The notes: generated by a model from the letters alone, not told the origin. A stretch of DNA of 64,000 nucleotides from Escherichia coli 042 (GCF_000027125.1 NC_017626.1), one strand, 5' to 3'. Shown: positions 198 through 28,902, numbered from the stretch's first letter. A program made the numbers and translations.

Positions 198-2789
198 TCA
201 GAACGTCCAGACCACACCCGCCTGAGTATTCCACGGCGATTCTACCCCTGCGCCATTGCCATAACTGACAGACAAATGACCGCTTAACGTCGGGGTAAAC
301 GATGACCTTATCCCAGCCTGATAAACGCCACTGGTTCCAGCCACATCATTATTAAATTTGCCATCGTCATTAACTTTCACCTGGTTAGAATCGGCGTATT
401 CCTGACGCACGGCGGCTTTCAGCCAGGGTTCCAGCGTCGTACCGTTTTGCAGGTCCATGTGATAGCTTACCGCCGTTCCCGCTTCAGCCCGTAATATGCG
501 GGTATTTCCCACATCCGCGCGCATGCCGTTTGATAACGTGTAGTCCTGACCATCAGTGGTAAAGCCGGTAAAGGCCAGATAGGGTCTAACACTCCACAAT
601 CCGTCAACCCAACGGAACCCGCTCTCGACATGAGCACCCGCGCCGTTACTATTGTAATCGCCAAACGCTGTTGCCCCATTACTCATCTTGCCATGGATGG
701 TGTTGGCAAAACGGTCAACTTTCACCACTCCATCAACATAGGCACCGTTCTGATGCTCCCAACCGGCATAAGCCCCCAGGGTGTAGCTATCGATATTGCC
801 TTTGCCGCCGCGATCAAAACCAATATCAGAATGAGAGTAACCAAAGAACAAGCCGCGAATTGTGCTGCTTTCTTCACGGGAGAAACGGCTATCGATACCG
901 AGCGTCAGGCCCGTCAATGTTTGCTCAAAGCCAGCTCCCGCATCAGTGGTCACGTTGTTGCGGGTGTTAATTGCCGAACTCCACATCGCCGTATCGTAAT
1001 TAACGCCTTTTACGCTACCAAGACGCTCACGCACGGTGTCCAGTTCTGCATCAAATACCAGCGGTTGTGCTGCCGCCATATTCAGCACATCAGTGGTTGA
1101 AGGGGTAATTTGCGCGCGATTCTCTGCCAGACTCCAGCTATGGTTGCCATTATCCAGCAAGGTATATTCATACGTACCGATATCAACAACGCCTCCGGCA
1201 TTGCCCAACGTAAATGCAGCATCACCGCCGCCCGTTGTTACCAGTGTAAGGCTATCTCCTGCTGCCGGGCTGGCACCGGTGTCCGTCACGAATATTTTGA
1301 AATCACCTGTTGCCTGACCGGTGACGTTGAGCTGATCGCTCTGATGATTAGCCATATCGGTACGCATATAAAAATTGCCGTTTCCCGACAGGGTATTGGT
1401 GGTCAACGTAATGAAATTTTCCGCACTTGCCGTCACTGATGAACGAGTCACTGGCTCAGCCATCATAATCACATTTGCGCCGGACATCGCAAGGTTGGCT
1501 AAGTTGAGGCGAGTGTTTTGGTTCGTCGTACTGTTATCGGCAATGATGGTCCATGCGCTATTTTCGAGCGAAACATCCGCTTTGCTGGTATCCACGGCAC
1601 CATGCGTTCTAAAAGAAGCGCCCTCAGAAACCACGACCTTACCCACCAACATAGCGGGTGCATAATTTATTTGCGGCTTCATGACCTCAAGAATGCCATC
1701 ATTCCCTCTGACTGAAACGTTAACCATTGTGCCAGCCCAGACATTAGCGCGACCATTGTTGATAACCATATTTTCAGAGATGGCTTTAGAGGAATACGTT
1801 ATACTTCCATTCTGATCTGATCGACCGAGATCATATACCGCATTTGCCTGCACTCTCGTACCAGTATCCTTTCCCAGCGATTGCATAGTGGCATGCTCAT
1901 CAAGGATAGTATCAATGGCCTGCGTGTCCTCCATAACAATGAGCCCGGAACCATCATCCAGTTCATAATTTTTTGACACACCATCTTTTATACTAAATTG
2001 GCCTTTACTGTTTGTACCACTCACTTCCAGCGCATTCGTTGAGACAATTAATTGTCCGCCTGCTTTTTTATCAACGCCAGTTGCAGTCCCGCCATCCATA
2101 ACCTCCAGTAAGCCGCCACTATCCACAGTGGTATTATAAGCGAAGTCATTTTCTTCAACTCGCAAACTTCCGCCGTTTTCCAACAGCATATTATTAGCAA
2201 TACCATCCTTGATATCGAACTGACCGAGACGGTTTGTTCCGAATACCTCCATGGCCCGCGTGGTTGTTTTAATCGCACCGCCGGCTTTCTGATCTACCGC
2301 AAATGCTAATCCCCCCTCTTTAACCTCCAGTAATCCTCCCTTTTCGATAGCGGCAAAGACGGTAATCCCATCTTTTTCAATAATTAAGCGCCCGCCTTTA
2401 ATGGTGGTATCATTCGCTGCGCCATAAACCTGTAGCACACCATTATTAAGGGTAGTCTGGTTTGCCGCGCCACCCATTTGAACAATTTGATAACCGTCAT
2501 TTAATACTGAGTATTCTGCGGTGCCATTCATTTCAATGTACTGATACCCTCCGTTAATTTCAGTATTACTACTTACACCAAATTCTTTTATATGCTGTTC
2601 TCCGCCAGGATTGATTTTCGTATTATTGGCGGTCCCATAAACCAGCTGGATATCTTTTTCCAGGACAACACCATCAACTGTCTCACCATACTCAACAGTT
2701 GATGCCAATGCTATGGGTGAATATAACGCTGTAGCCACCAGAACAGATATTGCGGAACGACAAAGAGAAACAGAACCAGATTGATGCAT
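198..2789 (-). CDS. yejO: AIDA-like autotransporter adhesin, apparently intact
   Basis: 863-aa ORF with N-terminal signal peptide, Gly/Asn/Thr-rich repetitive passenger and C-terminal beta-barrel ending in aromatic residue (...VVWTF); position immediately upstream of narP. Confidence 0.8.
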   Translation of the reverse strand: MHQSGSVSLCRSAISVLVATALYSPIALASTVEYGETVDGVVLEKDIQLVYGTANNTKINPGGEQHIKEFGVSSNTEINGGYQYIEMNGTAEYSVLNDGYQIVQMGGAANQTTLNNGVLQVYGAANDTTIKGGRLIIEKDGITVFAAIEKGGLLEVKEGGLAFAVDQKAGGAIKTTTRAMEVFGTNRLGQFDIKDGIANNMLLENGGSLRVEENDFAYNTTVDSGGLLEVMDGGTATGVDKKAGGQLIVSTNALEVSGTNSKGQFSIKDGVSKNYELDDGSGLIVMEDTQAIDTILDEHATMQSLGKDTGTRVQANAVYDLGRSDQNGSITYSSKAISENMVINNGRANVWAGTMVNVSVRGNDGILEVMKPQINYAPAMLVGKVVVSEGASFRTHGAVDTSKADVSLENSAWTIIADNSTTNQNTRLNLANLAMSGANVIMMAEPVTRSSVTASAENFITLTTNTLSGNGNFYMRTDMANHQSDQLNVTGQATGDFKIFVTDTGASPAAGDSLTLVTTGGGDAAFTLGNAGGVVDIGTYEYTLLDNGNHSWSLAENRAQITPSTTDVLNMAAAQPLVFDAELDTVRERLGSVKGVNYDTAMWSSAINTRNNVTTDAGAGFEQTLTGLTLGIDSRFSREESSTIRGLFFGYSHSDIGFDRGGKGNIDSYTLGAYAGWEHQNGAYVDGVVKVDRFANTIHGKMSNGATAFGDYNSNGAGAHVESGFRWVDGLWSVRPYLAFTGFTTDGQDYTLSNGMRADVGNTRILRAEAGTAVSYHMDLQNGTTLEPWLKAAVRQEYADSNQVKVNDDGKFNNDVAGTSGVYQAGIRSSFTPTLSGHLSVSYGNGAGVESPWNTQAGVVWTF

Positions 2790-3108
2790 TGAGCTTTCAT
2801 CCTATGAAATTAATTGCTGTTAAAAGCATTGGGTAAAGAAAATACCCATAGCTCCATACCCGGAGTCAGTTTTTAAAAACTGTTTAAAGAAATGCACAAG
2901 TATTGTGATTGATTTTTTAGTTGTTTTTCTTGATGAGAAGCTGATGCAAAATTCCGTCTTTATAATGAAAATGATGCCAAAGCGAACGACAAGGTTGTAG
3001 TTTTCACTACATGTCCATACATAAAATGGGGTAACATTCACGCGCCTGGTAGCGTTACCAACGCTACGCTCAAACATAATGATTCTAATAAAACCTCAGG
3101 AGACTACT

Positions 3109-3756
3109 ATGCCTGAAGCAACGCCTTTTCAGGTGATGATTGTGGATGATCATCCACTTATGCGACGCGGTGTTCGTCAGTTACTGGAGCTTGATCCTGG
3201 CTTTGAAGTGGTCGCCGAAGCGGGCGACGGCGCGAGCGCGATCGATCTGGCGAATAGACTGGATATCGACGTGATCTTGCTGGATCTCAATATGAAAGGT
3301 ATGAGTGGCCTGGATACCCTCAATGCCTTGCGCAGGGATGGCGTTACCGCGCAAATTATTATCCTGACCGTATCAGATGCCTCCAGCGATGTCTTTGCGC
3401 TGATAGACGCAGGCGCAGACGGTTATCTGTTGAAAGATAGCGACCCGGAAGTGTTGCTGGAAGCGATTCGTGCCGGAGCGAAAGGCAGCAAAGTCTTTAG
3501 CGAACGCGTCAATCAGTACTTACGTGAACGTGAAATGTTTGGCGCGGAAGAAGATCCCTTCAGCGTGCTGACGGAGCGCGAGCTGGATGTTCTGCACGAG
3601 CTGGCACAGGGGCTGTCAAATAAACAGATTGCCTCGGTGTTGAATATTTCCGAGCAGACAGTAAAAGTACACATTCGCAATCTGCTGCGTAAACTCAATG
3701 TCCGCTCACGCGTGGCGGCCACCATTCTGTTCCTGCAACAACGCGGGGCACAATAA
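3109..3756 (+). CDS. narP: Nitrate/nitrite response regulator NarP
   Basis: Receiver domain (VMIVDDHPLMRRG) plus LuxR-type HTH; start placed at MPEATPFQ (215 aa) rather than upstream ATG of track ORF 3079. Confidence 0.9.
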   Translation: MPEATPFQVMIVDDHPLMRRGVRQLLELDPGFEVVAEAGDGASAIDLANRLDIDVILLDLNMKGMSGLDTLNALRRDGVTAQIIILTVSDASSDVFALIDAGADGYLLKDSDPEVLLEAIRAGAKGSKVFSERVNQYLREREMFGAEEDPFSVLTERELDVLHELAQGLSNKQIASVLNISEQTVKVHIRNLLRKLNVRSRVAATILFLQQRGAQ

Positions 3757-3761
3757 AAATA

Positions 3762-3792
3762 GCCCGATGGCATCACCATCGGGCCTCTTTTT
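3762..3792. terminator. Bidirectional rho-independent terminator between convergent narP and ccmH
   Basis: GC hairpin gcccgatggcatcaccatcgggc flanked by A-run upstream and T-run downstream. Confidence 0.6.
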
Positions 3793-4843
3793 ATTTACTC
3801 TCCTGCGGCGACAAATGTTGCATCGCCTGCGCGATACTACGTTCAATCACCGCACGGCGAGTATCGTTGGCAGGTAAGAGTTTCAACATCATCTCCCACG
3901 CGGCAACGGCTTCGCCAAATCGCTGCTGCTCAAAGGCATTAAACGCATACATGCTTAACACACGGATATTGCTGTGGTCAGTTCTCACCAACTGGCGTAG
4001 CAGTTCACCACCGAGGCGGTTGTCGTTGGGATCAGATGAACGTGTCAACGCTTCAGCGTATCCCAGTGCAGCATCACTGTTCTTCGGATCGAGGCGATAT
4101 GCAGTAGCGTATGCATCGGTGGCAATACTGGCGTTACCCAGCGCCATGCCAACGCGGCCCAACATAATCCAGCCTTCTATATCTCCCGGATTTTTTTGCA
4201 GTTGAGTACGCATCCCCAGCGCCAGGCGCGACATCTCTTCTTCGTTGAGCGGATCGGCTTTCGGATCCAGCGCCCTGTCCAGCAACGCCGGAGCCTGTGC
4301 CGTGGCTTGCTGCCAGATTTTCACCTGCTGATAATTGCCAGTATGGTAGTAGCTGACGCCAGCTACAATTAACGCCACCACAATACCCGGCAGATAAACA
4401 ATATATCCGGCACGCTTACCTTCCGGCACGCTTTGTTCAGGAAACGCGTCCGGCACCACGCGTACCCGACGCCGCGAACGGGCGTATATGACCCAACCGC
4501 CAATGCCAATAGCCACTACCGGAAGCACCCACAGCAGCACGGTCAGCGGCGTTAACGGCGGATCGTAAGTGACGAAGTTGCCGTAACGCGCCACCATATA
4601 ATCGACAATCTCTTTCTTACTTTTACCTTCCTGCATCAGTTCATACACTTTCTGGCGCAGGTCGGTGGCAATCATCGAGTTGGAATCGGCAATGCTGTTG
4701 TTCTGGCATTTCGGGCAGCGTAGTTCTTCAGTGAGTTGCCGGAACTGCTGCTCCTGCGCTTCATCCTTAAACTGCAACACGTCGATGGTCGCCAGCGCTG
4801 AGCCGGAGATCATCAGCATCAGCACGCCCAATAAAAACCTCAT
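3791..4843 (-). CDS. ccmH: Cytochrome c-type biogenesis protein CcmH
   Basis: 350 aa, LRCPKC motif, TPR-like C-terminal half; last gene of ccm cluster. Confidence 0.9.
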   Translation of the reverse strand: MRFLLGVLMLMISGSALATIDVLQFKDEAQEQQFRQLTEELRCPKCQNNSIADSNSMIATDLRQKVYELMQEGKSKKEIVDYMVARYGNFVTYDPPLTPLTVLLWVLPVVAIGIGGWVIYARSRRRVRVVPDAFPEQSVPEGKRAGYIVYLPGIVVALIVAGVSYYHTGNYQQVKIWQQATAQAPALLDRALDPKADPLNEEEMSRLALGMRTQLQKNPGDIEGWIMLGRVGMALGNASIATDAYATAYRLDPKNSDAALGYAEALTRSSDPNDNRLGGELLRQLVRTDHSNIRVLSMYAFNAFEQQRFGEAVAAWEMMLKLLPANDTRRAVIERSIAQAMQHLSPQESK

Positions 4844-5397
4844 TGTGCGGCCTCCTTACTGTATTTCTCCCACAGCGGCTTGATCTCTTCTTCCCAGACG
4901 CGAGGATTGAGATCGCCCGCATGGCGATAGCGAATGATGCCGTTGCCGTCGATGAGGAACGTTTCTGGCGCGCCATAGACACCGAGATCCAGTCCTAACA
5001 TGCCGTCGCCATCAAACAGGCTTAGTGCGTAAGGATTGCCCAGCTCTTTCAGCCAGCTGATTGCCTTCTGGCGATCGTCTTTATAGTTCATGCCGACCAC
5101 GCGGATGCCCTGCGCAGAAAGCTGATTCAGATATTGATGTTCCGCACGGCAGGTCGGACACCAGGTCGCCCAGACGTTAAGCAGCACTGGTTTGCCCTGA
5201 GTCAGCACATCCGCCTGATAAAACTGCCCCGGATTGTCCAGTGATTCGAGGCGAAACTTCGGCACTGGCTTGCCAATGAGCGCCGATTCCAGATTGGTCG
5301 GATCATCCCCTTCGGCATTACGCGCCAGCTGCCACAGCAGCGCCGCGGCAATCGCCAGGAAGATAATCAACGGAATTAACAATACTTTGCGCTTCAT
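4840..5397 (-). CDS. ccmG: Thiol:disulfide interchange protein CcmG/DsbE
   Basis: 185 aa thioredoxin fold with WCPTC active site; 4-nt overlap with ccmH. Confidence 0.9.
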   Translation of the reverse strand: MKRKVLLIPLIIFLAIAAALLWQLARNAEGDDPTNLESALIGKPVPKFRLESLDNPGQFYQADVLTQGKPVLLNVWATWCPTCRAEHQYLNQLSAQGIRVVGMNYKDDRQKAISWLKELGNPYALSLFDGDGMLGLDLGVYGAPETFLIDGNGIIRYRHAGDLNPRVWEEEIKPLWEKYSKEAAQ

Positions 5398-7337
5398 ACA
5401 GCCTCCGGCGCAGTTTTCTGCGGGTTCACGCGCTTACGATAGCGAGGATCAAACAAACACAGCAGTCCGCCCAACGCCATCATCAGCCCGCCCGCCCAAA
5501 TCCAGCGAACAAACGGTTTGTAGTAAAGACGCACGGCCCACGCGCCGTTTTCCAGCTCTTCACCGAGCGCGGCGTACAGGTCACGCGTGATGCCACCGTC
5601 AATCGCCGCTTCGGTCATCATCGACCCGGCAGTGTTGTAATAACGTTTTTCCGCATACAGCACCGTTTCCGGTTTACCCTCTCGCGTTACGCCAATAGTC
5701 GCCACACCGCCGCGCCAGTTCGGGCCAGTCACCTCTTTGACATCACGGAAGGTGAAGCGATATTCATGAATATCGACGCTATCGCCGGACTTCATGCGCA
5801 CATCACGCTCAACGCTATAATTCTGGCTAAAGGCAATGCCAACAATTGTCACTGCCAGCCCCAGGTGAGCCGCCACCATCCCCCAATAACTGAAGGTGGT
5901 TTTCGTGCCGCGTGAAATACGCAGCGCAGCTTCCGCAATTGCCAGTACCGCAATCCAGCAGGCCATTGCCAGGCCGAGTACCGTCATCGCCACAACTTTG
6001 CTTTCGAACAGCCACGGCAACAGCAGAGACAGCACCAGCGTAGAGATGAAGGCGATAATCAATAAATTGCGGATTTTACGTGGGCGATCGCGCCCCCAGC
6101 GCACCAGAGGACCGACACCAAGCAGCAGCGCAAACGGCACCATCAGCCAGGTAAACATGGTGTTGAAGAACGGTTCGCCAATCGAAATGCTGCCCAGTCC
6201 CAGTTGCTTGTGCACCAGCGGCAGCAGCGTCCCCAGTAATACCACCAGCATCGCGGCGACCAGCAAAACGTTGTTCGCTAACAGCAAAGATTCCCGCGAC
6301 CACAGCGCATTGTTTACGCGTGAGCGAACTTTGTGTCCACGCGCGGCAAACAGCAGCAGCGAACCGCCAATCACCAGCACCATAAAGGCGAGGATAAACA
6401 TGCCGCGCGCCGGATCAGAGGCAAACGCGTGTACCGATACCAGCACGCCGGAACGCACGAGGAAAGTCCCCAGCAGACACAACGAGAAGGCACTGATTGC
6501 CAGCAGTAATGTCCACGCTTTGAAGCTGGCGCGTTGTTCAGTGACCGCCAGTGAGTGCATCAGCGCAGTCCCCACCAGCCACGGCATAAACGAGGCGTTT
6601 TCTACCGGATCCCAGAACCACCAGCCACCCCAGCCGAGTTCGTAATAGGCCCATGCGGAACCGAGCACAATGCCGAGCGTCAGGAAGATCCACGCTGCCA
6701 GTGTCCACGGACGAGTAAAACGCGCATAAGTGCTGTCCAGACGCCCGCTCAGCAAAGAAGCAATGGCAAAAGCAAACGCCACCGAGAAACCGACATACCC
6801 CATATAAAGCAGAGGCGGATGAAAGATCAGCCCCGGATCCTGCAACAGGGGGTTAAGATCGCGCCCTTCAATCGGGAAGTTCGGCAACGTGCGTGAGAAC
6901 GGGTTAGAGGTAAAGAGAATGAACAGCAAAAAGCCGACGCTGACCATCCCCATTATCGCCAGTACGCGGGCCACAATATCCAGCGGAATACGCTGACTAA
7001 AAATCGCCACCGCAAAGGTCCAGCCGCTCATCAGCAGCACCCACAGCAGAAGCGAACCTTCATGCGCGCCCCAGGTAGCCGCCACGCGATACCACACCGG
7101 AAGCTGGGTATTGGAGTTGCTGGCAACATAGGTGACGGTAAAGTCGTTGACCACGAAGGCATTGACCAGTACCAGAAATGCGCCAGCCACAGACATAAAC
7201 AGCAGCCAGGCAAACAAGCGGGAAGACGCCATCATGCGCGCATCTCCGCGCGCTACGCCCCATAGCGGATACACGGACAGCAGCAGCGCAACTCCTAGCG
7301 CCAGACACAGCAGTCCGTTACCAATTTCCGGCATCAT
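5394..7337 (-). CDS. ccmF: Cytochrome c heme lyase subunit CcmF
   Basis: 647 aa polytopic membrane protein with WWD-type tryptophan-rich motif ([15 protein letters not shown]). Confidence 0.9.
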
Positions 7338-7813
7338 GATGCTGTGTCCTTATAAACACTCGCCGGGCGACGGTGATTGGCTTCCATCGCTTTCTCAACT
7401 TCTGGCGGCGTGTAGTTTTCATCGTGTTTCGCCAGCACTTCTTTCGCGAGGATATGATTGCCTTTTTCCAGTTCACCCTGCACCACAACGCCCTGCCCTT
7501 CACGGAACAGATCCGGCAAAATGCCTTCGTAAGAGACATCTACTGAACCTTCAGCGTCGTAAATGGTGAAAGTTACTTTTAGCGAATTGGGATCGCGCTG
7601 CACACTACCCGGCATCACCATCCCGCCAACGCGCAGACGCTGACCGACTTCCGGCATTTGCTGAGTTTCACGCTTGCCGTAGAGAATTTCCCCCGGCGTA
7701 TAAAAGAGATCGATATTCGAGCGCAGTGCATATAGCACCAGACCGATAGTCAGCGCCAGCCCCGCCAAAACGGCACAGGCAATCCACAAGCGGTTTTTAC
7801 GGCGAATATTCAT
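7334..7813 (-). CDS. ccmE: Heme chaperone CcmE
   Basis: 159 aa, N-terminal membrane anchor, conserved heme-binding region near C-terminus. Confidence 0.9.
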
Positions 7814-8019
7814 GCAGCCTCCTGCTGTTGCGCAGCACGTAAACGCGCCTCACGCGCCCGCTGTTGCGCCACGCCACGCAGAATTGCGCGATGCTGCATC
7901 ACCGAGTGCACGACCAAAACCACCAGCGGAATAACGGTCATCACCACCGCCAGCCAGACAAAAAAGGCGTAACCGCCCATTGCGAAAAATTCATTCCAGG
8001 AAGCAAATGCAGGGGTCAT
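7810..8019 (-). CDS. ccmD: Heme exporter protein CcmD
   Basis: 69-aa single-TM protein, overlapping ccmC stop and ccmE start. Confidence 0.85.
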
Positions 8020-8753
8020 TTACGGCCTCTTTTCAGTATCAGTTCACTCACCCACGGACGGCGTTTTTCCATCAGCAAAATCAAATTACGCATCCGCATC
8101 AGCGTCAGCGTGGCAGACAGCAGCAGGAAGCCAAAAATCGACCAGCGCAGCGGCGAACGCATCGCCGGATCGATACTTTGCTGCATCCGCGTTGATCCCT
8201 GATGCAGGGTGTTCCACCACTCCACGGAGTAATGAATAATCGGCAGATTCACCACGCCAATCAGCACCAGAATACCTGCCGCACGGCCCGCCAGACGGCG
8301 GTCGTCGAAGGCGTGCCACAGGGCAATTACACCAACATACAGAAACAGCAGCACCAGTTCAGAAGTCAGGCGTGCGTCCCATACCCACCAGGTGCCCCAC
8401 ATCGGTTTTCCCCATGCAGAGCCGGTAACCAGGGCAATAAAGGTAAACACGGCACCAATGGGGGCCATCGCCGCCACCGCCAGGTTGGCCATTTTCATCT
8501 GCCAGACAAGGCCAATAAACGCCGCCACCGCCATTGATGCATAAATGCCCATCGACCAGATCGCCGCAGGCACATGCAGGTAGATAATGCGGTAGCTATT
8601 TCCCTGCTGATAATCAGCCGGAGCAAAGCCGAATCCCCAGATCCAGCCGACGGTAAGCACGACCACACTGGCAATTGCCAGCCACGGTATAAACCAGCCA
8701 CAGATTTGATACAGCCGTGGTGGGATCGCCAGTTGATGCAGTGTTTTCCACAT
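8016..8753 (-). CDS. ccmC: Heme exporter protein CcmC
   Basis: Membrane protein with WGTWWVWDARLT tryptophan-rich motif; start set at MWKTLHQ (245 aa) inside track ORF 8016..8777. Confidence 0.85.
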   Translation of the reverse strand: MWKTLHQLAIPPRLYQICGWFIPWLAIASVVVLTVGWIWGFGFAPADYQQGNSYRIIYLHVPAAIWSMGIYASMAVAAFIGLVWQMKMANLAVAAMAPIGAVFTFIALVTGSAWGKPMWGTWWVWDARLTSELVLLFLYVGVIALWHAFDDRRLAGRAAGILVLIGVVNLPIIHYSVEWWNTLHQGSTRMQQSIDPAMRSPLRWSIFGFLLLSATLTLMRMRNLILLMEKRRPWVSELILKRGRK

Positions 8754-8794
8754 AGTTTCGATACCAGACTCGAACAAAAATCAGTAATCCAGCG

Positions 8795-9457
8795 TTATTG
8801 AATGCTGATTCGTAACGCTGCCGCCGTCGCAAAAGGACTTAATGTCGCGGTGCCTGCCAGCAACGCGCCTAAAATTGCCAGATACCCATCAACGGGCAAA
8901 TGCATAGAAGCCGCGTCCATCGCGGCGGTGGCAAAGATGAGTAATGGGATAGTCAGCGGTAATACGAGAATGCTGAGCAGCACACCACCGCGCTTAAGTC
9001 CCACTGTCAGCGCCACGCCCGGTGCACCGAGAAAGCCAAGCGTAGGCGTTCCCAGCAGCAGCGTTAACGCCATCACTTGCCAGCCATAAACATCCATTCC
9101 CAGTAGCATTGCTACCAGGGGCGAAAGGATGAGTAACGGCAGACCGGTTACCATCCAGTGCGCCATCACCTTCGCCAGCACAACGGCGGGCAAGGGTAAC
9201 GGCAACAACATCAATTGTTCAAGACTGCCGTCCTGCAAATCGTCACGGAACAGACGCTCCAGTGCCAGCAAGGATGAAAGCAGCGCAGCAACCCAGATAA
9301 TGCCCGGCGCAATACGCGCCAGCAGTTGCGGCTCCGGACCGATACTGAGCGGAAAAAGGGTAATGACAATCAGGAAGAACCACAGCGGGTTGGCGATTTC
9401 GGCGCTATGGCGAAACGCTACGCGCAGCTCAAGACGGAAAATGCGCCAGAACATCAT
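8795..9457 (-). CDS. ccmB: Heme exporter permease CcmB
   Basis: 220 aa, six predicted TM segments, position between ccmA and ccmC. Confidence 0.9.
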
Positions 9458-10077
9458 GCGGCCCTCGTTTGCGTCAGTGAAATGCGGCGAATTTTACTTT
9501 CAGCAACGTTGAGCGGCTGGTGGGTAGTCAGAATCACAATCCCCCCCTGCTCCGTATGCTGCGCCATACGCTGGGTCAGACGATCGACGCCGTTAACGTC
9601 AATCGCGGTAAAAGGCTCGTCGAGGATCCATAACGTGGCACGGGTTAGCCACAGACGCGCTAAAGCGACGCGGCGTTGTTGCCCGGCAGAAAGTTGATTT
9701 ACCGGAATATCTTCGAATCCGGCAAGCCCGGCCTGCGCCAGGGCTTCCAGACATTGTGCGGTATCGCCATCGCGATGATAAAAGTGCAGATTTTCTAACG
9801 CCGTCAGCCGGGTTTTGATCCCCGGCTGATGGCCTATCCATAACAGGTTTTGATGGTAGCTGTCGCGTACCTGATGCAAGGGCTGCCCTTGCCAGAGAAC
9901 GTCACCCGCATCAGGGCGAGACAACCCCGTCAGCAAACGGAGAAGCGTTGTCTTCCCCGCGCCGTTGCTACCGGTGATTTGTACCCACTCTCCTGCGTTC
10001 AGCGTAAATGACAAGCCACTAAATAAGGTTCGTTCATCCCGCTCGCAAAGTAACTCTCTGGCTTCAAGCATACCCAC
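9454..10077 (-). CDS. ccmA: Heme exporter ATP-binding protein CcmA
   Basis: ABC ATPase with Walker [10 protein letters not shown] and signature LSAGQQRR. Confidence 0.9.
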
Positions 10078-10089
10078 GCAATAACCCTG

Positions 10090-10692
10090 TTAAAAACCTG
10101 GCTCGACTTCGCGCATATCGGGCAGCTTGTGCGCTATCCCTTTATGGCAATCAATACAGGTTTGCCCATCTTTCACCGCCTGGTCATGCATCTTCGCGGC
10201 AACCGATTTCTGGGCGGTTGTATCCATATACTCGAAGTTGTGACAGTTACGGCACTCCTGCGAGTTATTGTCCTTCATGCGCCGCCACTCATTCTGTGCC
10301 ATCGTCAGGCGATGAGCTTCAAATTTCTGCGGCGTGTCAATAACGCCAAAAATTTTACCATACAGCTCTTTACTTGCTTTGAGCTTGCGTATCATCTTCG
10401 GCACAAACTCGTGCGGAACGTGACAATCCGGACAGGTCGCACGAACGCCGCTACGGTTGTTGTAGTGCACGGAATCCATGTATTCCTGATACACCGTGTT
10501 ACGCATTTCGTGGCAGCTAATGCAGAACTCTTCGGTATTGGCTTTTTCCATCCCGGTGTTAAAGCCGCCCCAGAAGACGATGCCGCCAACAAAGCCGATC
10601 AACAGCAGCGTCCCCAGCGCCAGACGGCTGGGAGTACGCCACCATTTCCACAGGCGCTTAATCAGACCAGGCTTACGGTCAGAATTTCCCAT
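10090..10692 (-). CDS. napC: Tetraheme c-type cytochrome NapC
   Basis: 200 aa with four CxxCH motifs (CISCH, CPDCH, CRNCH, CIDCH) and N-terminal membrane anchor. Confidence 0.9.
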   Translation of the reverse strand: MGNSDRKPGLIKRLWKWWRTPSRLALGTLLLIGFVGGIVFWGGFNTGMEKANTEEFCISCHEMRNTVYQEYMDSVHYNNRSGVRATCPDCHVPHEFVPKMIRKLKASKELYGKIFGVIDTPQKFEAHRLTMAQNEWRRMKDNNSQECRNCHNFEYMDTTAQKSVAAKMHDQAVKDGQTCIDCHKGIAHKLPDMREVEPGF

Positions 10693-10701
10693 AATAACCT
10701 C

Positions 10702-11151
10702 TTATTTCCCGTAACCTTTTGACGGGGTAAAGGTATTCCCCACGATTGGCGCGGTATCGGCCTGCGGTACGTGACATTGCAGACAGAAATAACGACGCGG
10801 AGCCACTTCCGCGCCCACTTTGCCGTCGCTGTCCATAAAGTGAGTAGGACTGATGCGCGGCGCGCCAGTGGTGCGATAGCTTTCGACACCGTGGCACTGC
10901 AAGCAGCGGTTGGTATTGGTCGTTACCTGATAACCTTCAACGCTATGCGGGATCATTGGCGGCTGATTCACATAGTTCAGCGGCATCCGTTCCTGCTCTT
11001 TTGGCATCCGAATGGCCCCTTCCTGCGTCCCGGATACTTCCGGCGACTGGCTAAAATCGACGCCATTAGCCGCCCAAACCGCGCCGCTCACCACCAGGGC
11101 CAGCATCGCCGTCCATTGACACAGCGCTTTCTTCAGGTCATGGCTTTTCAT
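10702..11151 (-). CDS. napB: Diheme cytochrome c NapB
   Basis: Two CLQCH heme motifs, signal peptide; start set at MKSHDLKK (149 aa) giving 4-nt overlap with napH. Confidence 0.85.
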   Translation of the reverse strand: MKSHDLKKALCQWTAMLALVVSGAVWAANGVDFSQSPEVSGTQEGAIRMPKEQERMPLNYVNQPPMIPHSVEGYQVTTNTNRCLQCHGVESYRTTGAPRISPTHFMDSDGKVGAEVAPRRYFCLQCHVPQADTAPIVGNTFTPSKGYGK

Positions 11152-12011
11152 GATTTCGCTCCCGAACTCCATCGTGTAGTTATTGTAAATACATCCTCAG
11201 AACAGACATCCACGCAGCGACCGCACGTCATGCAATCGCGGCTGGTGACCTGCACCGGGCTTTGTTCATCCAGCACCGGGGCACGTAGCACATGCGGTTC
11301 CGGGCAAACATGAAAACAATCCATACAGCGGTTACATTTCTGCCGATCGGTGGCCGCAACGGTAATGACACCTTTGCTACCCAGCACGCCATACAGCGCG
11401 CCAACCGGACAAATGTGCCCGCACCAGCCGTGTTCAACGACCAGTAGATCAAATAAAAACAGCGCGAGAATAAGCAGCGCGCCGCTGCCGAATCCCATTA
11501 CCAGACTGCGCCCCATCAGGGAAACGGGGTTGATCCATTCCCAGATGAGTGTGCCGGTTAAGGCCGATCCCAGCAGAATGACCACCAACAGCACGTAGCG
11601 AATGTGGCGAGGGATCGTCGCAGACTGATTGAGGTCAAAGCGCCTGCGTAACCAGTTCGCTAAGTCGGTAATCGGGTTCAGCGGGCAGACCCAGCTGCAA
11701 AATAATCGCTTTCCTGCCAGGGCGTAGAGCACGGTGATAATTACCGCACCGGTCAACGCCACCGTGGCAGGCAGATGACCGCTGGCAAGACTTTGCAGCG
11801 TCATCAGCGGATCGGTCAGCGGAACGGTGTCGAATAACAGGCTACTGCTGTAGTTGCCGTGCAAGATCCACACACCAAACCACGGACCGCTCAAAAACAT
11901 CCCCAGCACGAAGAACTGACAAAGGCGACGTAACACCAGCCAACGGTGGCTGCGCCACCAGCCTTTTTTCTCCAGCGCCTCGCGCCCGGCGTCACGTTTA
12001 CGATTTGCCAT
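11148..12011 (-). CDS. napH: Membrane-bound ferredoxin-type protein NapH
   Basis: 287 aa, TM helices plus C-terminal Cys clusters (CNRCMDC, CMTCGRC). Confidence 0.9.
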
Positions 12012-12693
12012 TGTTCCCCTCCAGCCAGCCGAAGCGGTAATGGTGACCTAACTCCCCTTTCGCCAGTGACAGCGGTAACACCTTGATTGCCGGTTGTTCC
12101 AGCACGCACACTTTTTCGCACTTACCGCAGCCGGTACAGGCGTCGCTGTGAACCGTCGGCAGAAAGCGGGCGTGCTTACCGGTACGCGTGTTGCGCTCCA
12201 GCTCCAGGGTGATTGCCTCATCAATTTTCGGGCATTCGCGATAACAAACATCGCAGCGCAGCCCCTGAAAGTTGAGACAGTTTTCCTGGTCCACCAGTAC
12301 CGCCAGCCCCATCCGCGCGTCGTCGATCGATTCGATCTCACGATCCAGCGCACCGCTCGGGCACACTTTGGCGCACGGAATGTCCTCACACATTTCGCAA
12401 GGAATATCCCGTGCGACAAAATATGGCGTGCCCGCCGACAGGCCAGAAGCCAGCGTCGCCAGTTTTAAGGTGTCATAAGGGCAAGCCTGAACACACTGAC
12501 CGCAACGCACACAGGCACTGGCAAAGGCGTTCTCGTTTATGGCTCCGGGCGGGCGCAACCGCACGCCAGATGCGCGTGCGGTTTGCTGTTGTAACCCCAG
12601 CGCCACACCCACGGCAGCCAGCCCGCCAGCTGTGCGAACGACATCGCGCAGAAAGCGGCGGCGACCATTTTGAGGTTTCGCTGACCGGGACAT
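11998..12693 (-). CDS. napG: Ferredoxin-type protein NapG
   Basis: 231 aa, twin-arginine signal (RRRFLRDV), four Cys4 clusters. Confidence 0.9.
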
Positions 12694-12699
12694 AATGGC

Positions 12700-15186
12700 T
12701 TACACCTTCTCCAGTTTGACCGCGCACTTCTTGAAGTCCGTCTCTTTCGAGAGCGGATCGGTCGCATCCAGCGTCAGTTTGTTAACCAGCTGTGCGGCGT
12801 CGAAGAACGGCATGTACACCAGGCCCTGCGGCGGACGGTTACGACCGCGCGTTTCGACAATCGAGATCACTTCGCCACGGCGAGAAACCACTTTCACTTT
12901 GTCGCCACGGCGCAGATCGCGCGCTTTCGCATCCAACGGGTGAATAAACAGGACCGCTTCCGGGAAGGCACGGTGCAGTTCCGGTACACGGCGAGTCATA
13001 CTGCCGGTATGCCAGTGCTCCAGGACGCGTCCGGTAGAGAGCCACAGGTCGTACTCTTCATCCGGTGCCTCCGCCGCCGGTTCGAACGGCAGCGCGAAGA
13101 TCACCGCTTTGCCATCCGGTTTACCGTAGAACTTGTAGCCTTCGCCCGCTTTCACGTATGGGTCGTTACCTTCGCTGTAACGCCACTGCGTTTCTTTACC
13201 GTTCACTACCGGCCAGCGCAGACCGCGTGCTTTGTGGTAATCATCGAACGGTGCCAGATCGTGACCGTGACCACGACCAAACCATGCGTACTCTTCGAAC
13301 AGCCCTTTTTGCAGATAGAAGCCCAGCTCGCGGGATTCATCGTTCAGCTGATCTTCCGCCAGTTCTGATACCGGGAATTTGCTCACTTCCGGGGTGGCAT
13401 ACAGAACTTCGTACAGCGTTTTGCCACGCAGTTCCGGTTTCTTCGCCAGCAGCTCTTCCGGCCATACTTCTTCAGTTTTGAAGCGGCGGGAGAACTGGAC
13501 TAACTGCCAGAGATCCGATTTCGCTTCGCCCGGTGCCTGTACCTGCTGACGCCAGAATTGAGTACGGCGTTCGGCGTTACCGTAAGCCCCCTCTTTCTCT
13601 ACCCACATTGCGGTCGGCAGAATCAAGTCCGCTGCCAGCGCACTGACTGTCGGATACGGATCGGAGACGATGATGAAGTTGCGCGGATCGCGCCAGCCCG
13701 GCATACGCTCTTCATTGATGTTCGGCCCGGCCTGCATGTTGTTGGTACACATGGTCCAGTAAACATTCAGCTTGCCGTCTTTCAGCGCACGGTCTTGTGC
13801 CACCGCGTGCAGACCGATTTTCGCCGGAATGGTGCCGCTCGGGATATTCCACTTCTTCTCGCAGATATCACGGTGTTTCTCGTTAGTCACCACCATGTCC
13901 GCAGGCAGACGGTGAGCAAAGGTGCCCACTTCACGCGCAGTACCACACGCGGAAGGCTGCCCGGTCAGGGAGAACGGACCGCAACCCGGCTGGGAAATTT
14001 TGCCGGTCAGCAGGTGCAGGTTGTAGACCAGGTTGTTGGCCCACACGCCACGAGTATGCTGGTTGAAGCCCATCGTCCAGTAGGAGATGACTTTCTTGTT
14101 CGGATCGGCATACAGCTGCGCCAGTTGTTCCAGCTGATCTTTTGGTACGCCAGTCATTTCGGCGGTTTTTTCCAGCGTATACTCGGCAACGAAGGCTTTG
14201 TAATCTTCAAAGCTCATCGGTTCGGAGGCGTCAGAACCCGGATTCTTCGCTGCTTTTTCCAGCGGATGGGTCGGACGTAAACCGTAGCCGATGTCCGTCG
14301 CCCCTTTGCGCAGGTTAACGTGCTTGCTGAAGAAGTCCTGATTTATCGCATTGTTTTGAATGATATAGTTGGCGATGTAGTTCAGGATCACCAGGTCAGA
14401 TTGCGGCGTAAAGATGATGCCGTTATCCGCCAGCTCGAAGCTACGATGCTGGTAGGTAGAAAGCACCGCCACGGTGACGTTCTGGTTAGAGAGACGACGG
14501 TTAGTGATGCGTGACCAGAGGATCGGGTGCATCTCCGCCATGTTAGCGCCCCACAGCACAAACGCGTCAGCCTGCTCGATGTCGTCATAGCAGCCCATCG
14601 GCTCATCCATACCAAAGGTACGCATAAAGCCAACTACTGCCGACGCCATACAGTGACGCGCGTTCGGGTCGATGTTGTTCGAACGGAAGCCCGCTTTAAA
14701 CAGCTTGGACGCGGCATAACCTTCCCAGATAGTCCACTGACCAGAACCGAACATACCGATCGACTCCGGCCCTTTTTCTTTCAGGGCGGTTTTGAATTTC
14801 TCTTCCATCACATCGAAGGCCTGATCCCAGGTGATTGGGGTAAATTCGCCTTCTTTGTCATATTTACCGTTTTTCATACGCAGCAGCGGCTGCGTCAAAC
14901 GGTCTTTACCGTACATGATTTTGGGCAGGAAATAGCCCTTAATGCAGTTCAGACCACGGTTAACCGGTGCGTCCGGGTCGCCCTGACAGGCCACCACACG
15001 CCCCTGCTGCGTTCCGACCAGAACGCCGCAACCAGTACCGCAGAAACGGCACGGCGCTTTATCCCATTTAATGGCTTCCTGCTGACCAACAACGGCGCGG
15101 GCAACGCCCGGCACGCTGAGACCGGCAGCCGCCGCAGCGGCCGCAACGGCGTTAGCTTTCATAAAGCTACGACGACTGAGTTTCAT
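12700..15186 (-). CDS. napA: Periplasmic nitrate reductase catalytic subunit NapA
   Basis: 828 aa molybdoenzyme, Tat signal ([10 protein letters not shown]...), N-terminal Cys cluster CRFCGTGCG. Confidence 0.95.
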
Positions 15187-15446
15187 GGTGTTTCCTCACC
15201 TTGCTCTTCCTGCTGGTGATAAACCAGCGACACCGCCAGCACGCCCTCTACGTTGCGTACTGACTCAATGATTTGGATCAGCGTTTCGCTGTCTTCTGCT
15301 TCCACCACCACAATCAACTGACCGCTCGGCGCGTCGCTGACAGCAACTTCACAGCCGGGAAAGGCGTTCAGTTGGGTGCTGATGTCTGAAATTCGTTCGC
15401 TTTTGGCCTGCACGACCAGGCTGCAAACTTGCCAGTTAGTGTGCAT
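15183..15446 (-). CDS. napD: NapA chaperone NapD
   Basis: 87 aa, ATGA overlap with napA start. Confidence 0.85.
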
Positions 15447-15930
15447 GGAGATACTCCGCAGTTATGGCTGATACCGGACAGCTGGCTGCACATGCTCCAC
15501 ATCCGTTGCAAAGTTGGCTATTAAGTTGCGGCTGGTAGATCCCGGAGAGCGTCGGGCGAAAGATAATTGCCATTGGCTCACAGCTATCCTGACAGCGGCG
15601 GCATTCAACTGACTGATACGCCAGGCACGCGTCCCCAATGGTGAACTGCAAATCCCAGGCCCTGGTGTGGCGCGGAGAAAATAGCGATTCGGGGCAAGCC
15701 TGCGCGCAGGCGTAACAGAAGCTGCACTCGTTATTTTTGAAGTTAACGCTCGGATAGCCGCCCGCGCCGCGTTGCAGAATGTTGTTTTCACAAGCATTAA
15801 TACAGGCGTCGCAGCGAGTGCAATGGGTCAGAAAATGAGATTCATCACCGGACCAGGGCGGACGGATACCGTTACTGGCTTTGCGCCAGCGACCAGTGAG
15901 TATGCCCCGACGGGATGCATCAATCTTCAC
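15436..15930 (-). CDS. napF: Ferredoxin-type protein NapF
   Basis: 164 aa with multiple CxxCxxCxxxCP iron-sulfur motifs; first gene of nap operon. Confidence 0.9.
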   Translation of the reverse strand: MKIDASRRGILTGRWRKASNGIRPPWSGDESHFLTHCTRCDACINACENNILQRGAGGYPSVNFKNNECSFCYACAQACPESLFSPRHTRAWDLQFTIGDACLAYQSVECRRCQDSCEPMAIIFRPTLSGIYQPQLNSQLCNGCGACAASCPVSAITAEYLHAH

Positions 15931-16043
15931 ATTGACCTTCCATCATTAACGCGCTCTGAAAATTGAGAGCGACCAAATAAACCGCATAATTAATAAGCCA
16001 TTTTTATAGCCGCTAAGATATTAAAGGATGTGTCAAAGATGCA

Positions 16044-16059
16044 TACCCCGATCGGGGTA
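16044..16059. promoter_or_regulatory. NarP/NarL 7-2-7 heptamer pair upstream of napF
   Basis: Perfect 16-bp palindrome TACCCCG-AT-CGGGGTA about 120 bp upstream of napF start codon; matches the NarL/NarP heptamer pattern TACYYMT in 7-2-7 arrangement. Confidence 0.6.
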
Positions 16060-16064
16060 AAACC

Positions 16065-16078
16065 TGTAGCAGGATCAA
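16065..16078. promoter_or_regulatory. Candidate FNR site in napF promoter
   Basis: tgtag-cagg-ATCAA, one good FNR half-site, centred 20 bp upstream (relative to napF) of the NarP palindrome centre, consistent with the reported -64.5/-44.5 arrangement. Confidence 0.4.
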
Positions 16079-16337
16079 AAGAGTGGCGGGAAGCGTGGCA
16101 AAAACGGGCTTTTGCTCACATTTCAAATGGTTATAAACATACTTATATAGCGATTAATTCACCAGAGATATTTATGTCGGTTTGTTCTCTCACCAGAATT
16201 TAACACTAAAAGAGCAGGTAAAATTGTCTGAATGTTCTTTAAGTTATTCATAAAGCAAATTAATAAATCTGATGAATATGTTAACCTTCAGCGACATCAT
16301 CGGTGAAAACCTATAAATGAAGAAGGAAAGCAAAAAA

Positions 16338-16826
16338 ATGAAGACCATTCTACCTGCAGTATTGTTTGCCGCTTTCGCCACCACTTCCGCCTGGGCGGCA
16401 GAAAGCGTCCAGCCACTGGAAAAAATCGCGCCTTATCCACAAGCTGAAAAAGGCATGAAGCGTCAGGTGATTCAGTTAACCCCGCAAGAAGATGAATCTA
16501 CCCTGAAAGTAGAACTGTTAATCGGCCAGACGCTGGAAGTCGATTGCAATTTGCATCGTCTCGGCGGGAAGCTGGAAAGCAAAACGCTGGAAGGCTGGGG
16601 CTATGATTATTACGTCTTTGATAAAGTTAGCTCGCCGGTTTCCACGATGATGGCCTGCCCGGATGGCAAGAAAGAGAAGAAATTTGTCACCGCGTATCTG
16701 GGCGATGCCGGAATGCTGCGTTATAACAGCAAGCTGCCGATCGTGGTGTATACGCCAGACAATGTGGATGTGAAGTACCGCATCTGGAAGGCGGAAGAGA
16801 AAATTGACAACGCGGTAGTTCGCTAA
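16338..16826 (+). CDS. eco: Ecotin, periplasmic serine protease inhibitor
   Basis: Start set at [13 protein letters not shown] (162 aa) with signal peptide; upstream in-frame ATG of track ORF judged not the true start. Confidence 0.9.
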
Positions 16827-16849
16827 ACTGCTGTGAAGTGCGGCACCCC

Positions 16850-16973
16850 GTAGGTCGGATAAGGCGGTCACGCCGCATCCGACATCTAACGCCCGAGCCG
16901 GTTGACTGATGCGACGCTGACGCGTCTTATCTGCATATGCCACATCCGGCATACCATGCCGGATGTGGCATAT
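16850..16973. repeat. REP-like palindromes plus 18-bp perfect inverted-repeat hairpin between convergent eco and mqo
   Basis: gtaggtcggataaggcggtcacgccgcatccgac (REP-like) and atatgccacatccggcat-acc-atgccggatgtggcatat perfect hairpin at 16935..16973. Confidence 0.6.
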
Positions 16974-16975
16974 CA

Positions 16976-18634
<1,659 letters not shown>

Positions 18635-24799: not shown

Positions 24800-24954
24800 T
24801 GCAAGGGAACTTTTTAAGATTATTGCGGAATGGCGAAATAAGCACCTAACATCAAGCAATAATAATTCAAGGTTAAAATCAATAACTTATTCTTAAGTAT
24901 TTGACAGCACTGAATGTCAAAACAAAACCTTCACTCGCAACTAGAATAACTCCC

Positions 24955-25047
24955 GCTATCATCATTAACTTTATTTATTACCGTCATTCATTTCTGAATG
25001 TCTGTTTACCCCTATTTCAACCGGATGCCTCGCATCCGGTTTTTTTT
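24955..25047 (+). ncRNA. micF: MicF antisense sRNA (represses ompF)
   Basis: Sequence GCTATCATCATTAACTTTATTTATTACCGTCATTCATTTCTGAATGTCTGTTTACCCCTATTTCAACCGGATGCCTCGCATCCGGTTTTTTTT recognised as micF; ends with terminator hairpin plus T-run; TAGAAT -10 box 7 bp upstream; divergent from ompC. Confidence 0.85.

Positions 25048-28704: not shown

Positions 28705-28897
<193 letters not shown>

Positions 28898-28902
<5 letters not shown>

Follow-up and report, generated by a model that had tools for sequence, protein, structure and literature searches.

Gene junctions and transcript boundaries of the nap-ccm operon in Escherichia coli 042

The window analyzed here is a stretch of 64,000 nt of Escherichia coli 042 DNA, read on one strand. 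Fifteen minus-strand open reading frames, with one terminal stop each, fill its positions 3791-15930. Does their close packing mean that they are transcribed and translated as a single coupled unit, as a preliminary description of the sequence proposed? The region is the canonical napFDAGHBC-ccmABCDEFGH operon of E. coli: The genes of the periplasmic nitrate reductase, followed by those of the System I cytochrome c maturation machinery. Both the operon and its packing are already known. Its genes are listed below in the order of transcription, with the junction to the preceding gene. ATGA indicates a 4 nt overlap.

napF, 15436..15930, minus strand: iron-sulfur protein, 164 aa, GTG start; TIGR00402 equivalog, 248 bits; three CxxCxxCxxxC; RefSeq coordinates
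napD, 15183..15446, minus strand: chaperone; starts 11 nt inside napF; NF007840 residues 1-87 of 87
napA, 12700..15186, minus strand: catalytic subunit; ATGA with napD at 15183-15186; TIGR01706, 1655 bits (cutoff 930); Tat motif SRRSFMK
napG, 11998..12693, minus strand: 6 nt gap after napA; NF007012, 416 bits
napH, 11148..12011, minus strand: starts 14 nt inside napG; NF007013, 470 bits
napB, 10702..11151, minus strand: dihaem cytochrome, two CxxCH; ATGA with napH at 11148-11151; NF008609 residues 1-149 of 149
napC, 10090..10692, minus strand: tetrahaem quinol dehydrogenase, four CxxCH; 9 nt gap with AAGAGG (Shine-Dalgarno); NF007906 residues 1-200 of 200, 463 bits (cutoff 349)
ccmA, 9454..10077, minus strand: ABC ATPase, GTG start; 12 nt gap after napC, no clear Shine-Dalgarno; start region the most accessible of the cluster; NF010061, 332 bits
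ccmB, 8795..9457, minus strand: ATGA with ccmA at 9454-9457; TIGR01190
ccmB-ccmC spacer, 8754..8794, minus strand: 41 nt, break in the coupling chain
ccmC, 8016..8753, minus strand: ATG start without Shine-Dalgarno; TIGR01191; WWD motif
ccmD, 7810..8019, minus strand: ATGA with ccmC at 8016-8019; TIGR03141
ccmE, 7334..7813, minus strand: haem chaperone; ATGA with ccmD at 7810-7813; NF009635 residues 1-159 of 159; His130 in HDENY
ccmF, 5394..7337, minus strand: ATGA with ccmE at 7334-7337; TIGR00353, 1015 bits
ccmG/dsbE, 4840..5397, minus strand: ATGA with ccmF at 5394-5397; NF011941 residues 1-185 of 185; CPTC at residue 80
ccmH, 3791..4843, minus strand: CcmH + CcmI fusion; ATGA with ccmG at 4840-4843; RefSeq CcmH; LRCPKC at residue 41

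All fifteen reading frames coincide with RefSeq coordinates (E. coli A10 and K-12 annotation). Nucleotide identity is 99.2% to E. coli A10 and 98% to K-12, and the cluster is found in 5,417 of 5,426 E. coli genomes. Fourteen proteins score above the curated NCBIfam cutoff, several of them aligned from profile position 1: All seven Nap proteins, in the order F-D-A-G-H-B-C, and CcmA to CcmG, in a ccm half ordered from A to H. The exception is CcmH, with 127 bits against a cutoff of 159 on the NrfF model (an N-terminal NrfF/CcmH-like domain), which we identify by its near-identity to RefSeq CcmH and its LRCPKC motif. In most other loci, its C-terminal half is encoded by a gene of its own. All the diagnostic cofactor, export and functional motifs of Nap and Ccm proteins are present. 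They include the Fe-S cysteine clusters (CxxCxxCxxxC) of NapF, NapG and NapH, the Walker A motif of CcmA, WWD in both CcmC and CcmF, CcmE His130, CcmG CPTC and CcmH LRCPKC. The K-12 operon (aeg-46.5 locus, b2194-b2208) has the identical 15 genes, order, strand and junction spacings. Differences from the window are at the strain level only, with about 2% of the bases substituted.

Eight of the fourteen junctions are ATGA overlaps, and the coordinates first quoted for them are all exact. The other six are overlaps of 11 and 14 nt and gaps of 6, 9, 12 and 41 nt. Nearly every junction had been described as either an ATGA or a gap of under 15 bp: This holds for 11 of 14, the departures being the two longer overlaps and the 41 nt between ccmB and ccmC. 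All TGA stops of the cluster lie within ATGA overlaps, the remaining seven genes end in TAA. Nine junctions fall in the class from -8 to +6, which contains 707 of the 2,987 same-direction gene pairs of E. coli (24%, PMC10666635; binomial P = 0.0014). A second comparison set was formed by the other same-direction pairs annotated in the K-12 counterpart of the window (n = 22). Overlaps of -4 are more frequent in the cluster than among these neighbours (8/14 vs 3/22, Fisher P = 0.0097), while the difference in the -8 to +6 class is not significant (P = 0.31), so the packing is dense but normal for an operon. The overlaps are genuine and conserved, yet nothing out of the ordinary.

Tight packing had also been offered as an internal check of the gene starts, but it is an unreliable one. 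For ccmC it would choose a wrong start, TTG 8777, which leaves a 17 nt gap. The true start is ATG 8753, with a register common to 78 of 79 loci. For ccmA, packing cannot decide between GTG 10077 and ATG 10071. A longer napB reading frame from ATG 11172 is unsupported.

When the fifteen starts are scored by their anti-Shine-Dalgarno duplex, thirteen reach -5.8 kcal/mol or better, on a background in which about 10% of random positions reach -6 kcal/mol. At each of the eight ATGA junctions, the upstream gene contains a Shine-Dalgarno-like sequence (-5.8 to -11.9 kcal/mol), the strongest being that of ccmH (TAAGGAGG, -11.9 kcal/mol). The exceptions are ccmA, with only -3.3 kcal/mol, and ccmC, at whose ATG this scoring found no Shine-Dalgarno. 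An ATGA with a Shine-Dalgarno in the upstream reading frame gave termination-reinitiation coupling in four of five native E. coli pairs tested; the fifth, bioBF, initiated de novo (PMC6728339). Reinitiation loses 40-80% when the gap reaches +14 nt, and at +38 nt almost none is left (PMC10666635). The ccmB-ccmC junction, at +41 and lacking a Shine-Dalgarno, would thus be uncoupled, and the ccmA start (GTG at +12) is weak and probably independent. With these two breaks, coupling would take place in blocks and not along the 12 kb; what stands of the tight coupling first proposed are the eight ATGA junctions with their Shine-Dalgarno sequences and conserved overlaps.

The blocks would be napF-D-A, napG-H-B, napC, ccmA-B and ccmC-D-E-F-G-H. 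At an ATGA within a block, a ribosome ending at the TGA would sit on the next ATG, just downstream of the Shine-Dalgarno in the upstream gene, a placement which would favour termination-reinitiation. At block borders (gaps of 6 to 41 nt), initiation would be de novo. We infer coupling at these particular nap and ccm junctions from their likeness to known termination-reinitiation pairs (Huber et al. 2019; PMC10666635, 2023), which also have -4 ATGA overlaps, a Shine-Dalgarno in the upstream reading frame and genes for membrane-complex subunits. Unlike those pairs, nap-ccm also has junctions at +9, +12 and +41, a class which the same studies assign to independent initiation.

Conservation of the overlaps was scored across Gammaproteobacteria, in genomes which are only 55-60% identical at the protein level. 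The -4 overlap is kept at ccmD-E in 56 of 76 loci (74%), at ccmE-F in 43 of 69 (62%) and at ccmF-G in 32 of 66. It is found at ccmC-D in 26 of 77 loci and at ccmA-B in 23 of 79, plus 15 one-nt overlaps. The loosest ccm junction is ccmB-C: Among 79 loci it is never -4, and in 28 it exceeds 60 nt. In five of six nap-ccm genomes, the nap junctions agree exactly or to within 1 nt, with one locus outlying at napF-D and napH-B. They are largely kept in the separate nap operon of Pectobacterium, including the -14 of napG-H.

Could the overlaps be neutral by-products of genome compaction and of start and stop drift, each gene being initiated de novo and without functional coupling? This is the alternative which survives best, although we consider it unlikely. 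It agrees with the thirteen genes having their own Shine-Dalgarno, with the behaviour of bioBF and with junction lengths which differ among genomes, for example at ccmA-B and ccmC-D. Start-site accessibility is not distinctive either: Folding shows no difference between overlap junctions and background (P = 0.33), a result which speaks neither for coupling nor against it. Against it stands the persistence of -4 at ccmD-E and ccmE-F at such low protein identity. In E. coli, subunits of heteromeric complexes also show a 4.5-fold enrichment of short overlaps (PMC10666635). Finally, ccmF and ccmH have start regions with more structure than the background (14.4 and 16.5 vs an average of 12.3 kcal/mol), which makes free de novo entry less favourable.

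Translation in blocks leaves the question of the transcript. The elements which bear on it are the following:

Fnr-type site TTGATCCTGCTACA, 16065..16078, minus strand: napF promoter region, read directly from the sequence
NarP/NarL site TACCCCGATCGGGGTA, 16044..16059, minus strand: 7-2-7 inverted heptamers, beginning 19 nt after TTGAT
Candidate ccm promoter, extended -10 TGGTAAAAT (TGgTAAAAT), 10352..10360, minus strand: within napC, some 270 nt before ccmA
Intrinsic terminator, 3761..3785, bidirectional: common to ccmH and convergent narP; GC-rich stem of 11 pairs with an A run and a T run at its sides

Judged by their sequence, Fnr and NarP/NarL 7-2-7 sites are present upstream of napF, as in the K-12 control region; their binding and regulation are described in the literature. 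After conversion, an FNR ChIP peak labelled napF/yojO (PMC3688515) lies no more than about 10 bp from the Fnr-type site, and napF is activated by Fnr plus NarP-P (PMC9262595, PMC3688515). At the other end, the hairpin lies 5 nt after ccmH, with a folding energy of -25.9 kcal/mol (z = -6.4). K-12, where narP is also convergent downstream, has two hairpins with REP elements between them in place of this single bidirectional terminator. No convincing internal terminators were found in the cluster, which the literature handles as one operon. The Fnr- and NarP-dependent napF promoter could then read about 12.2 kb to the single strong hairpin after ccmH, and a transcript of this length is plausible.

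The single transcript of about 12 kb first proposed is compatible with both its ends, but the sigma-70 peaks inside napC count against it. Internal promoters and terminators had been named as what would speak against it, and of these only candidate promoters have been found. Two anaerobically enhanced sigma-70 ChIP-seq peaks are listed as "within napC" and "napC" (PMC3688515 Table S2). The first, at 2295919, rises from 60.6 (aerobic) to 258.4 (anaerobic), the second from 62.1 to 509.0 (PMC3688515). The ChIP coordinates refer to an older K-12 version, and their conversion is uncertain by a few bp; the 2295919 peak falls at about position 10329 of the window, roughly 20-30 nt from the extended -10. 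The coding strand of the cluster has no other extended -10 match, and a single match is not above chance by itself (1.4 expected in shuffled sequence). Its absence from Citrobacter, Enterobacter and Leclercia also counts against a promoter at this site. An extended -10 ccmA promoter was reportedly mapped inside napC by Tanapongpipat et al. in 1998. Near the second peak, close to the napC start, no recognisable consensus was found on either strand. One or more internal sigma-70 promoters in napC probably also supply ccm mRNA independently of nap.

Are nap and ccm then in practice two operons, with read-through from napF adding little to ccm expression? We find this improbable. The napC peaks appear in anaerobic, nitrate-free growth, and that differential table has no napF peak (PMC3688515). 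The weak ccmA start and the ancestral autonomy of ccm, which stands alone without nap upstream in 74 of 80 gammaproteobacterial loci, also agree with two operons. However, only 12 nt and no terminator separate napC from ccmA, a gap which measures 12-20 nt in every one of the six fused genomes, and the published assignment is one unit. Polar insertions in nap are reported to lower ccm expression, which also counts against two operons.

The opposite extreme, one obligatory 12 kb transcript coupled through all 14 junctions and without independent units, survives worst. Ccm is also needed by c-type cytochromes other than Nap, which counts against such a unit. It is very unlikely indeed: The 11 junctions with an ATGA or a gap below 15 nt, the lack of convincing internal terminators, the published single operon and the similar anaerobic rise of nap and ccm (about 2-2.7-fold, PMC3688515 Table S12) agree with it, but not the 41 nt spacer beyond the reach of reinitiation, the ccmA GTG without Shine-Dalgarno, the napC peaks and the autonomy of ccm in most relatives.

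One long unit, inside which at least one ccm unit is nested, is the best description of the cluster. A canonical operon from the napF promoter to the ccmH hairpin, with one or more nested promoters in napC and translation in blocks, is as a whole the explanation we hold with high confidence.

Within this nested operon, the ccm half might retain marks of ancestral autonomy, a tentative and rather doubtful suggestion: They would be the internal napC promoter, the uncoupled ccmB-C spacer and a shared TTGAT/7-2-7 logic. The extended -10 is found in Escherichia only; it appears to be an Escherichia-specific promoter written into napC codons (TAT GGT AAA ATT). The ccmB-ccmC spacer, at a junction which is loose in every gammaproteobacterial lineage examined, may have been conserved as a deliberately uncoupled set-point which separates the synthesis of CcmAB from that of CcmCDEFGH.

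Several stand-alone ccm promoter regions of Enterobacterales contain TTGAT plus a 7-2-7 module and TGnTATGAT. TTGAT-N14-(7-2-7), with the same 19 nt offset as in E. coli napF, is found before the stand-alone ccmA of Serratia, Hafnia and Budvicia, which suggests that the fusion of nap with ccm took place under an Fnr/NarP logic which the two already had in common. Stand-alone System I ccmABCDEFGH(I) operons (Serratia, Vibrio, Haemophilus, Shewanella) have the same ccm order, with ATGA at D-E, E-F and F-G and a loose B-C. They differ in having no nap upstream, a promoter region of their own, and CcmH and CcmI as separate genes. In Shewanella, ccmFG(H) is divergent from ccmABCDE.

The napFDAGHBC-ccmABCDEFGH cluster is formed by 15 contiguous reading frames on the minus strand (3791-15930, from an ORF listing over 2500-17500), each with a single terminal stop when translated. 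Far from novel, it is an E. coli operon that has been characterised thoroughly. There is little new in it: textbooks or published work already cover the operon, how it is regulated and what ATGA (4-nt start/stop) overlaps generally mean. Among 5,426 complete genomes of E. coli, 5,417 match the 12,140-bp cluster along 80% or more of it, with a best nucleotide identity of 99.2%; identity to K-12 MG1655 is 98%. The RefSeq annotation of K-12 and of A10, the closest genome, shows the same 15 genes with identical spacings; narP is the neighbour on one side, yojO/eco on the other.

All proteins but one (14 of 15) are above the curated cutoff of their own NCBIfam model; for NapD, NapB, NapC, CcmE and DsbE/CcmG the alignment begins at residue 1 and runs through to the model's end. 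CcmH is under its cutoff, matching through its N-terminal NrfF-like domain only, and is near-identical to RefSeq CcmH. All the expected motifs are intact, both in nap (NapA Tat signal, CxxCH haem sites, Fe-S cysteine clusters) and in ccm (Walker A, WWD motifs, CcmE His130, CPTC, LRCxxC).

The E. coli CcmH gene (3791-4843) corresponds to two genes, ccmH and ccmI, in most other Gammaproteobacteria (loci L008-L082 of our comparison). The fused form, with its ATGA junction to ccmG, is found only in the seven loci closest to Escherichia. The best E. coli match to 3791-15930 is a wood-wren isolate from Mexico. Only 7 of the 5,426 complete genomes have at least 99% identity over this region, therefore the 042 lineage is sparsely sampled. 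One further match, with 60-80% identity, is found on a plasmid.

The spacing of the 14 junctions is as follows.

Junctions between consecutive genes of the cluster, in transcription order (minus strand)
napF-napD: overlap of 11 nt
napD-napA: ATGA
napA-napG: gap of 6 nt
napG-napH: overlap of 14 nt
napH-napB: ATGA
napB-napC: gap of 9 nt
napC-ccmA: gap of 12 nt
ccmA-ccmB: ATGA
ccmB-ccmC: gap of 41 nt
ccmC-ccmD, ccmD-ccmE, ccmE-ccmF, ccmF-ccmG, ccmG-ccmH: ATGA each

The positions of the eight ATGA overlaps in the preliminary description are all exact. Its rule that junctions are ATGA overlaps or gaps under 15 bp covers 11 of the 14; two are longer overlaps, and the 41-nt ccmB-ccmC gap is a genuine exception. 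Without exception, the TGA stops of the cluster are those in ATGA overlaps, while TAA ends the other seven genes.

Across the E. coli genome, 707 of 2,987 same-direction gene pairs (24%) are spaced at -8 to +6 nt, and 203 at +9 to +12 nt (PMC10666635). Nine of the 14 cluster junctions belong to the first class (binomial P = 0.0014 against the genome-wide 24%). Eight of the 14 junctions are -4 nt overlaps, versus 3 among the 22 other same-direction pairs annotated in what corresponds to the window in K-12 (Fisher P = 0.0097). For the -8 to +6 class, the difference between the cluster and these 22 neighbouring pairs is not significant (P = 0.31). The packing is dense, yet in the normal range for operons encoding membrane complexes.

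The ATGA geometry with an upstream Shine-Dalgarno sequence gave strict coupling in four of five native E. coli pairs (PMC6728339), and reinitiation drops by 40-80% at +14 nt and is almost gone at +38 nt (PMC10666635). Because of this geometry and of the fall of reinitiation with distance, coupling would be expected inside the blocks napF-D-A, napG-H-B, ccmA-B and ccmC-H. Where ATGA joins two genes (eight junctions), a ribosome that terminates would cover the following start codon, which has a Shine-Dalgarno sequence shortly before it; de novo initiation would take place at napG, napC, ccmA and ccmC. We infer that coupling operates at the ATGA junctions. Coupling had been proposed all along a single transcript, and this reading is partly correct: there is support for the overlaps, for coupling as probable and for a long read-through unit, but none for an unbroken chain. 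In RNA folding, the accessibility of overlap junctions is not separated from the background, and the overall result is not significant. Individual values fit the block picture: the start region of ccmA is the most accessible of the cluster (opening cost 6.4 kcal/mol, background mean 12.3), and those of ccmF (14.4) and ccmH (16.5 kcal/mol) are the most occluded.

Inspection of Shine-Dalgarno sequences, a check suggested for the junctions, shows that the anti-Shine-Dalgarno duplex reaches -5.8 kcal/mol or better at 13 of the 15 starts, including all eight ATGA junctions. About 10% of random cluster positions reach -6 kcal/mol. The exceptions are ccmA, with a GTG start (-3.3), and ccmC (-2.8 kcal/mol). 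The annotated starts are confirmed by the agreement of start registers in related loci, identical in 78 of 79 for ccmC, 76 of 76 for ccmE and 69 of 69 for ccmF. Tight packing, proposed as an internal check of the chosen starts, corroborates most of them and serves badly in three cases. A tight-junction rule would miscall ccmC, since the TTG at 8777, which gives the longest ORF, leaves a gap of 17 nt and the true ATG at 8753 one of 41 nt. It cannot choose between GTG 10077 and ATG 10071 in ccmA, where Citrobacter uses the ATG register. In napB, the rule alone does not exclude ATG 11172. The practical value of the dense ATGA junctions is in annotation, where they back most starts of the cluster, not all.

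Two elements upstream of napF correspond to the published napF promoter, which Fnr and NarP-P activate and NarL antagonises (PMC9262595; PMC3688515).

Elements of the napF promoter
16078-16065, minus strand: TTGAT-type Fnr site
16059-16044, minus strand: inverted heptamers TACCCCGATCGGGGTA, 19 nt beyond the Fnr TTGAT

At the other end, 5 nt past the ccmH stop, there is a terminator whose GC-rich hairpin has an 11-pair stem between runs of A and T. The convergent narP gene shares this hairpin, which folds with -25.9 kcal/mol (z = -6.4). Hairpin-plus-T sites within the cluster are weak, and their number does not exceed that in shuffled sequence (21 observed versus 15.8 ± 4.5). A transcript of about 12.2 kb from the napF promoter to the ccmH terminator is plausible, because of this promoter, the strong end terminator and the weakness of internal terminator-like sites; the literature lists the 15 genes as one operon. 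The narP-ccmH interval (3757-3790) is a 34-bp spacer with a single bidirectional terminator hairpin. In K-12 (locus L002, 5149-5358) the spacer has 210 bp, with two related hairpins and about 150 bp of REP-type palindromic elements between them.

The cluster is more than one single transcription unit. A single promoter is not supported: against it are two sigma-70 ChIP-seq peaks in napC with anaerobic preference (Myers et al. 2013, Table S2; PMC3688515) and an extended -10 match. The peaks are "within napC" at 2295919 (aerobic 60.6, anaerobic 258.4) and "napC" at about 2296270 (62.1 and 509.0). Converted through the K-12 alignment, they fall roughly at 10329 and 10680; as a check, the same conversion puts the napF FNR peak no more than about 10 bp from the Fnr site. 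Only one sequence on the coding strand of the whole cluster matches TGnTAnnnT with five or more of the six hexamer positions: TGGTAAAAT (10360-10352). It is part of napC; ccmA follows about 270 nt downstream, and the peak at about 10329 is roughly 20-30 nt away. One match is no more than chance (1.4 expected). The element is confined to Escherichia, and for lack of conservation elsewhere we do not present this candidate as established. An extended -10 promoter of ccmA was reportedly mapped within napC by Tanapongpipat et al. (1998), with which TGGTAAAAT agrees.

Near 10680, at the napC start and napB-napC junction, where the stronger anaerobic peak of the two is located, no sigma-70 consensus is found on either strand. 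Close by, at about 10669, is a motif-less FNR ChIP "peak". A consensus promoter scan gave zero minus-strand sigma-70 matches in the cluster, with fewer sites overall than in shuffles, a result neutral as to internal promoters. Neither nap nor ccm appears in the SMRT-Cappable-seq supplements, and full-text literature searches gave no usable description of a ccmA promoter. An operon may look seamless in its sequence and still hold nested promoter activity.

A CcmC-anchored search gave 80 loci from different gammaproteobacterial species. In 74 of them ccm is a stand-alone operon. Only six carry nap on the strand of ccmA and immediately upstream of it: those of E. coli, E. albertii, two Citrobacter, an Enterobacter and Leclercia. 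No other locus has narP beside ccmH.

Conservation of the 4-nt overlap at ccm junctions
ccmD-ccmE: 56 of 76 loci
ccmE-ccmF: 43 of 69
ccmF-ccmG: 32 of 66
ccmC-ccmD: 26 of 77
ccmA-ccmB: 23 of 79, plus 15 one-nt overlaps
ccmB-ccmC: never; over 60 nt in 28 of 79

Since ccmB-ccmC is loose across loci, the single loose junction of E. coli is the systematically loose junction of the family. Five of the six fused genomes share the nap pattern exactly or to within 1 nt, with one locus outlying at napF-D and napH-B. The separate, convergent nap operon of Pectobacterium largely keeps it (G-H -14, H-B -4, A-G +5, B-C as GTGA). Insertion of nap behind an ancestral ccm promoter is speculation, unsupported by flanking synteny (narP, eco and mqo are found at fused loci only). 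Citrobacter werkmanii has two ccm clusters (L005, L011), one fused to nap; the second stands alone, its CcmC has 80% identity, and a NapC/TorC-like cytochrome gene comes after it.

The ccmB-ccmC spacer (8754-8794) is the loosest ccm junction in all 79 loci, with lengths between -1 and over 200 nt. The sequence GAGTCTGGTGACTGAACT, about 18 nt before the ccmC ATG, is kept in Citrobacter, Enterobacter and a Klebsiella species, and its GGTGA is able to pair with the 3' tail of the 16S rRNA; in Escherichia, GGTGA has degenerated to GGTAT. Long spacers in Vibrio have a promoter-like look.

We have also compared 200 nt upstream of ccmA (L009, L010, L012, L016, L018, L020, L021). In the stand-alone operons of Serratia, Hafnia, Budvicia and Pectobacterium, TTGAT precedes a NarP-type 7-2-7 site by 19-20 nt, which is also the offset of the E. 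coli napF promoter. An extended -10 (TGnTATGAT) is found about 35 nt before ccmA in the first three, with TGTTATTCT instead in Pectobacterium. A 7-2-7 site with at most two mismatches is present in 20 of 78 ccmA upstream regions, versus 4% of random sequence.

Elsewhere in the window, the yejO autotransporter gene (198-2789, minus strand) is an intact 863-codon ORF, split by IS5 in K-12 and annotated as frameshifted in A10. Rfam matches at 24954-25047, 28708-28898 and 58999-59069 correspond to MicF adjoining ompC and three naRNA4/REP-type repeats, ordinary E. coli features. The eco-mqo spacer has about 150 bp (16827-16975) versus about 715 bp in K-12 (L002, 18395-19108), and eco may be called with 169 codons, as in A10, versus 162 in K-12.
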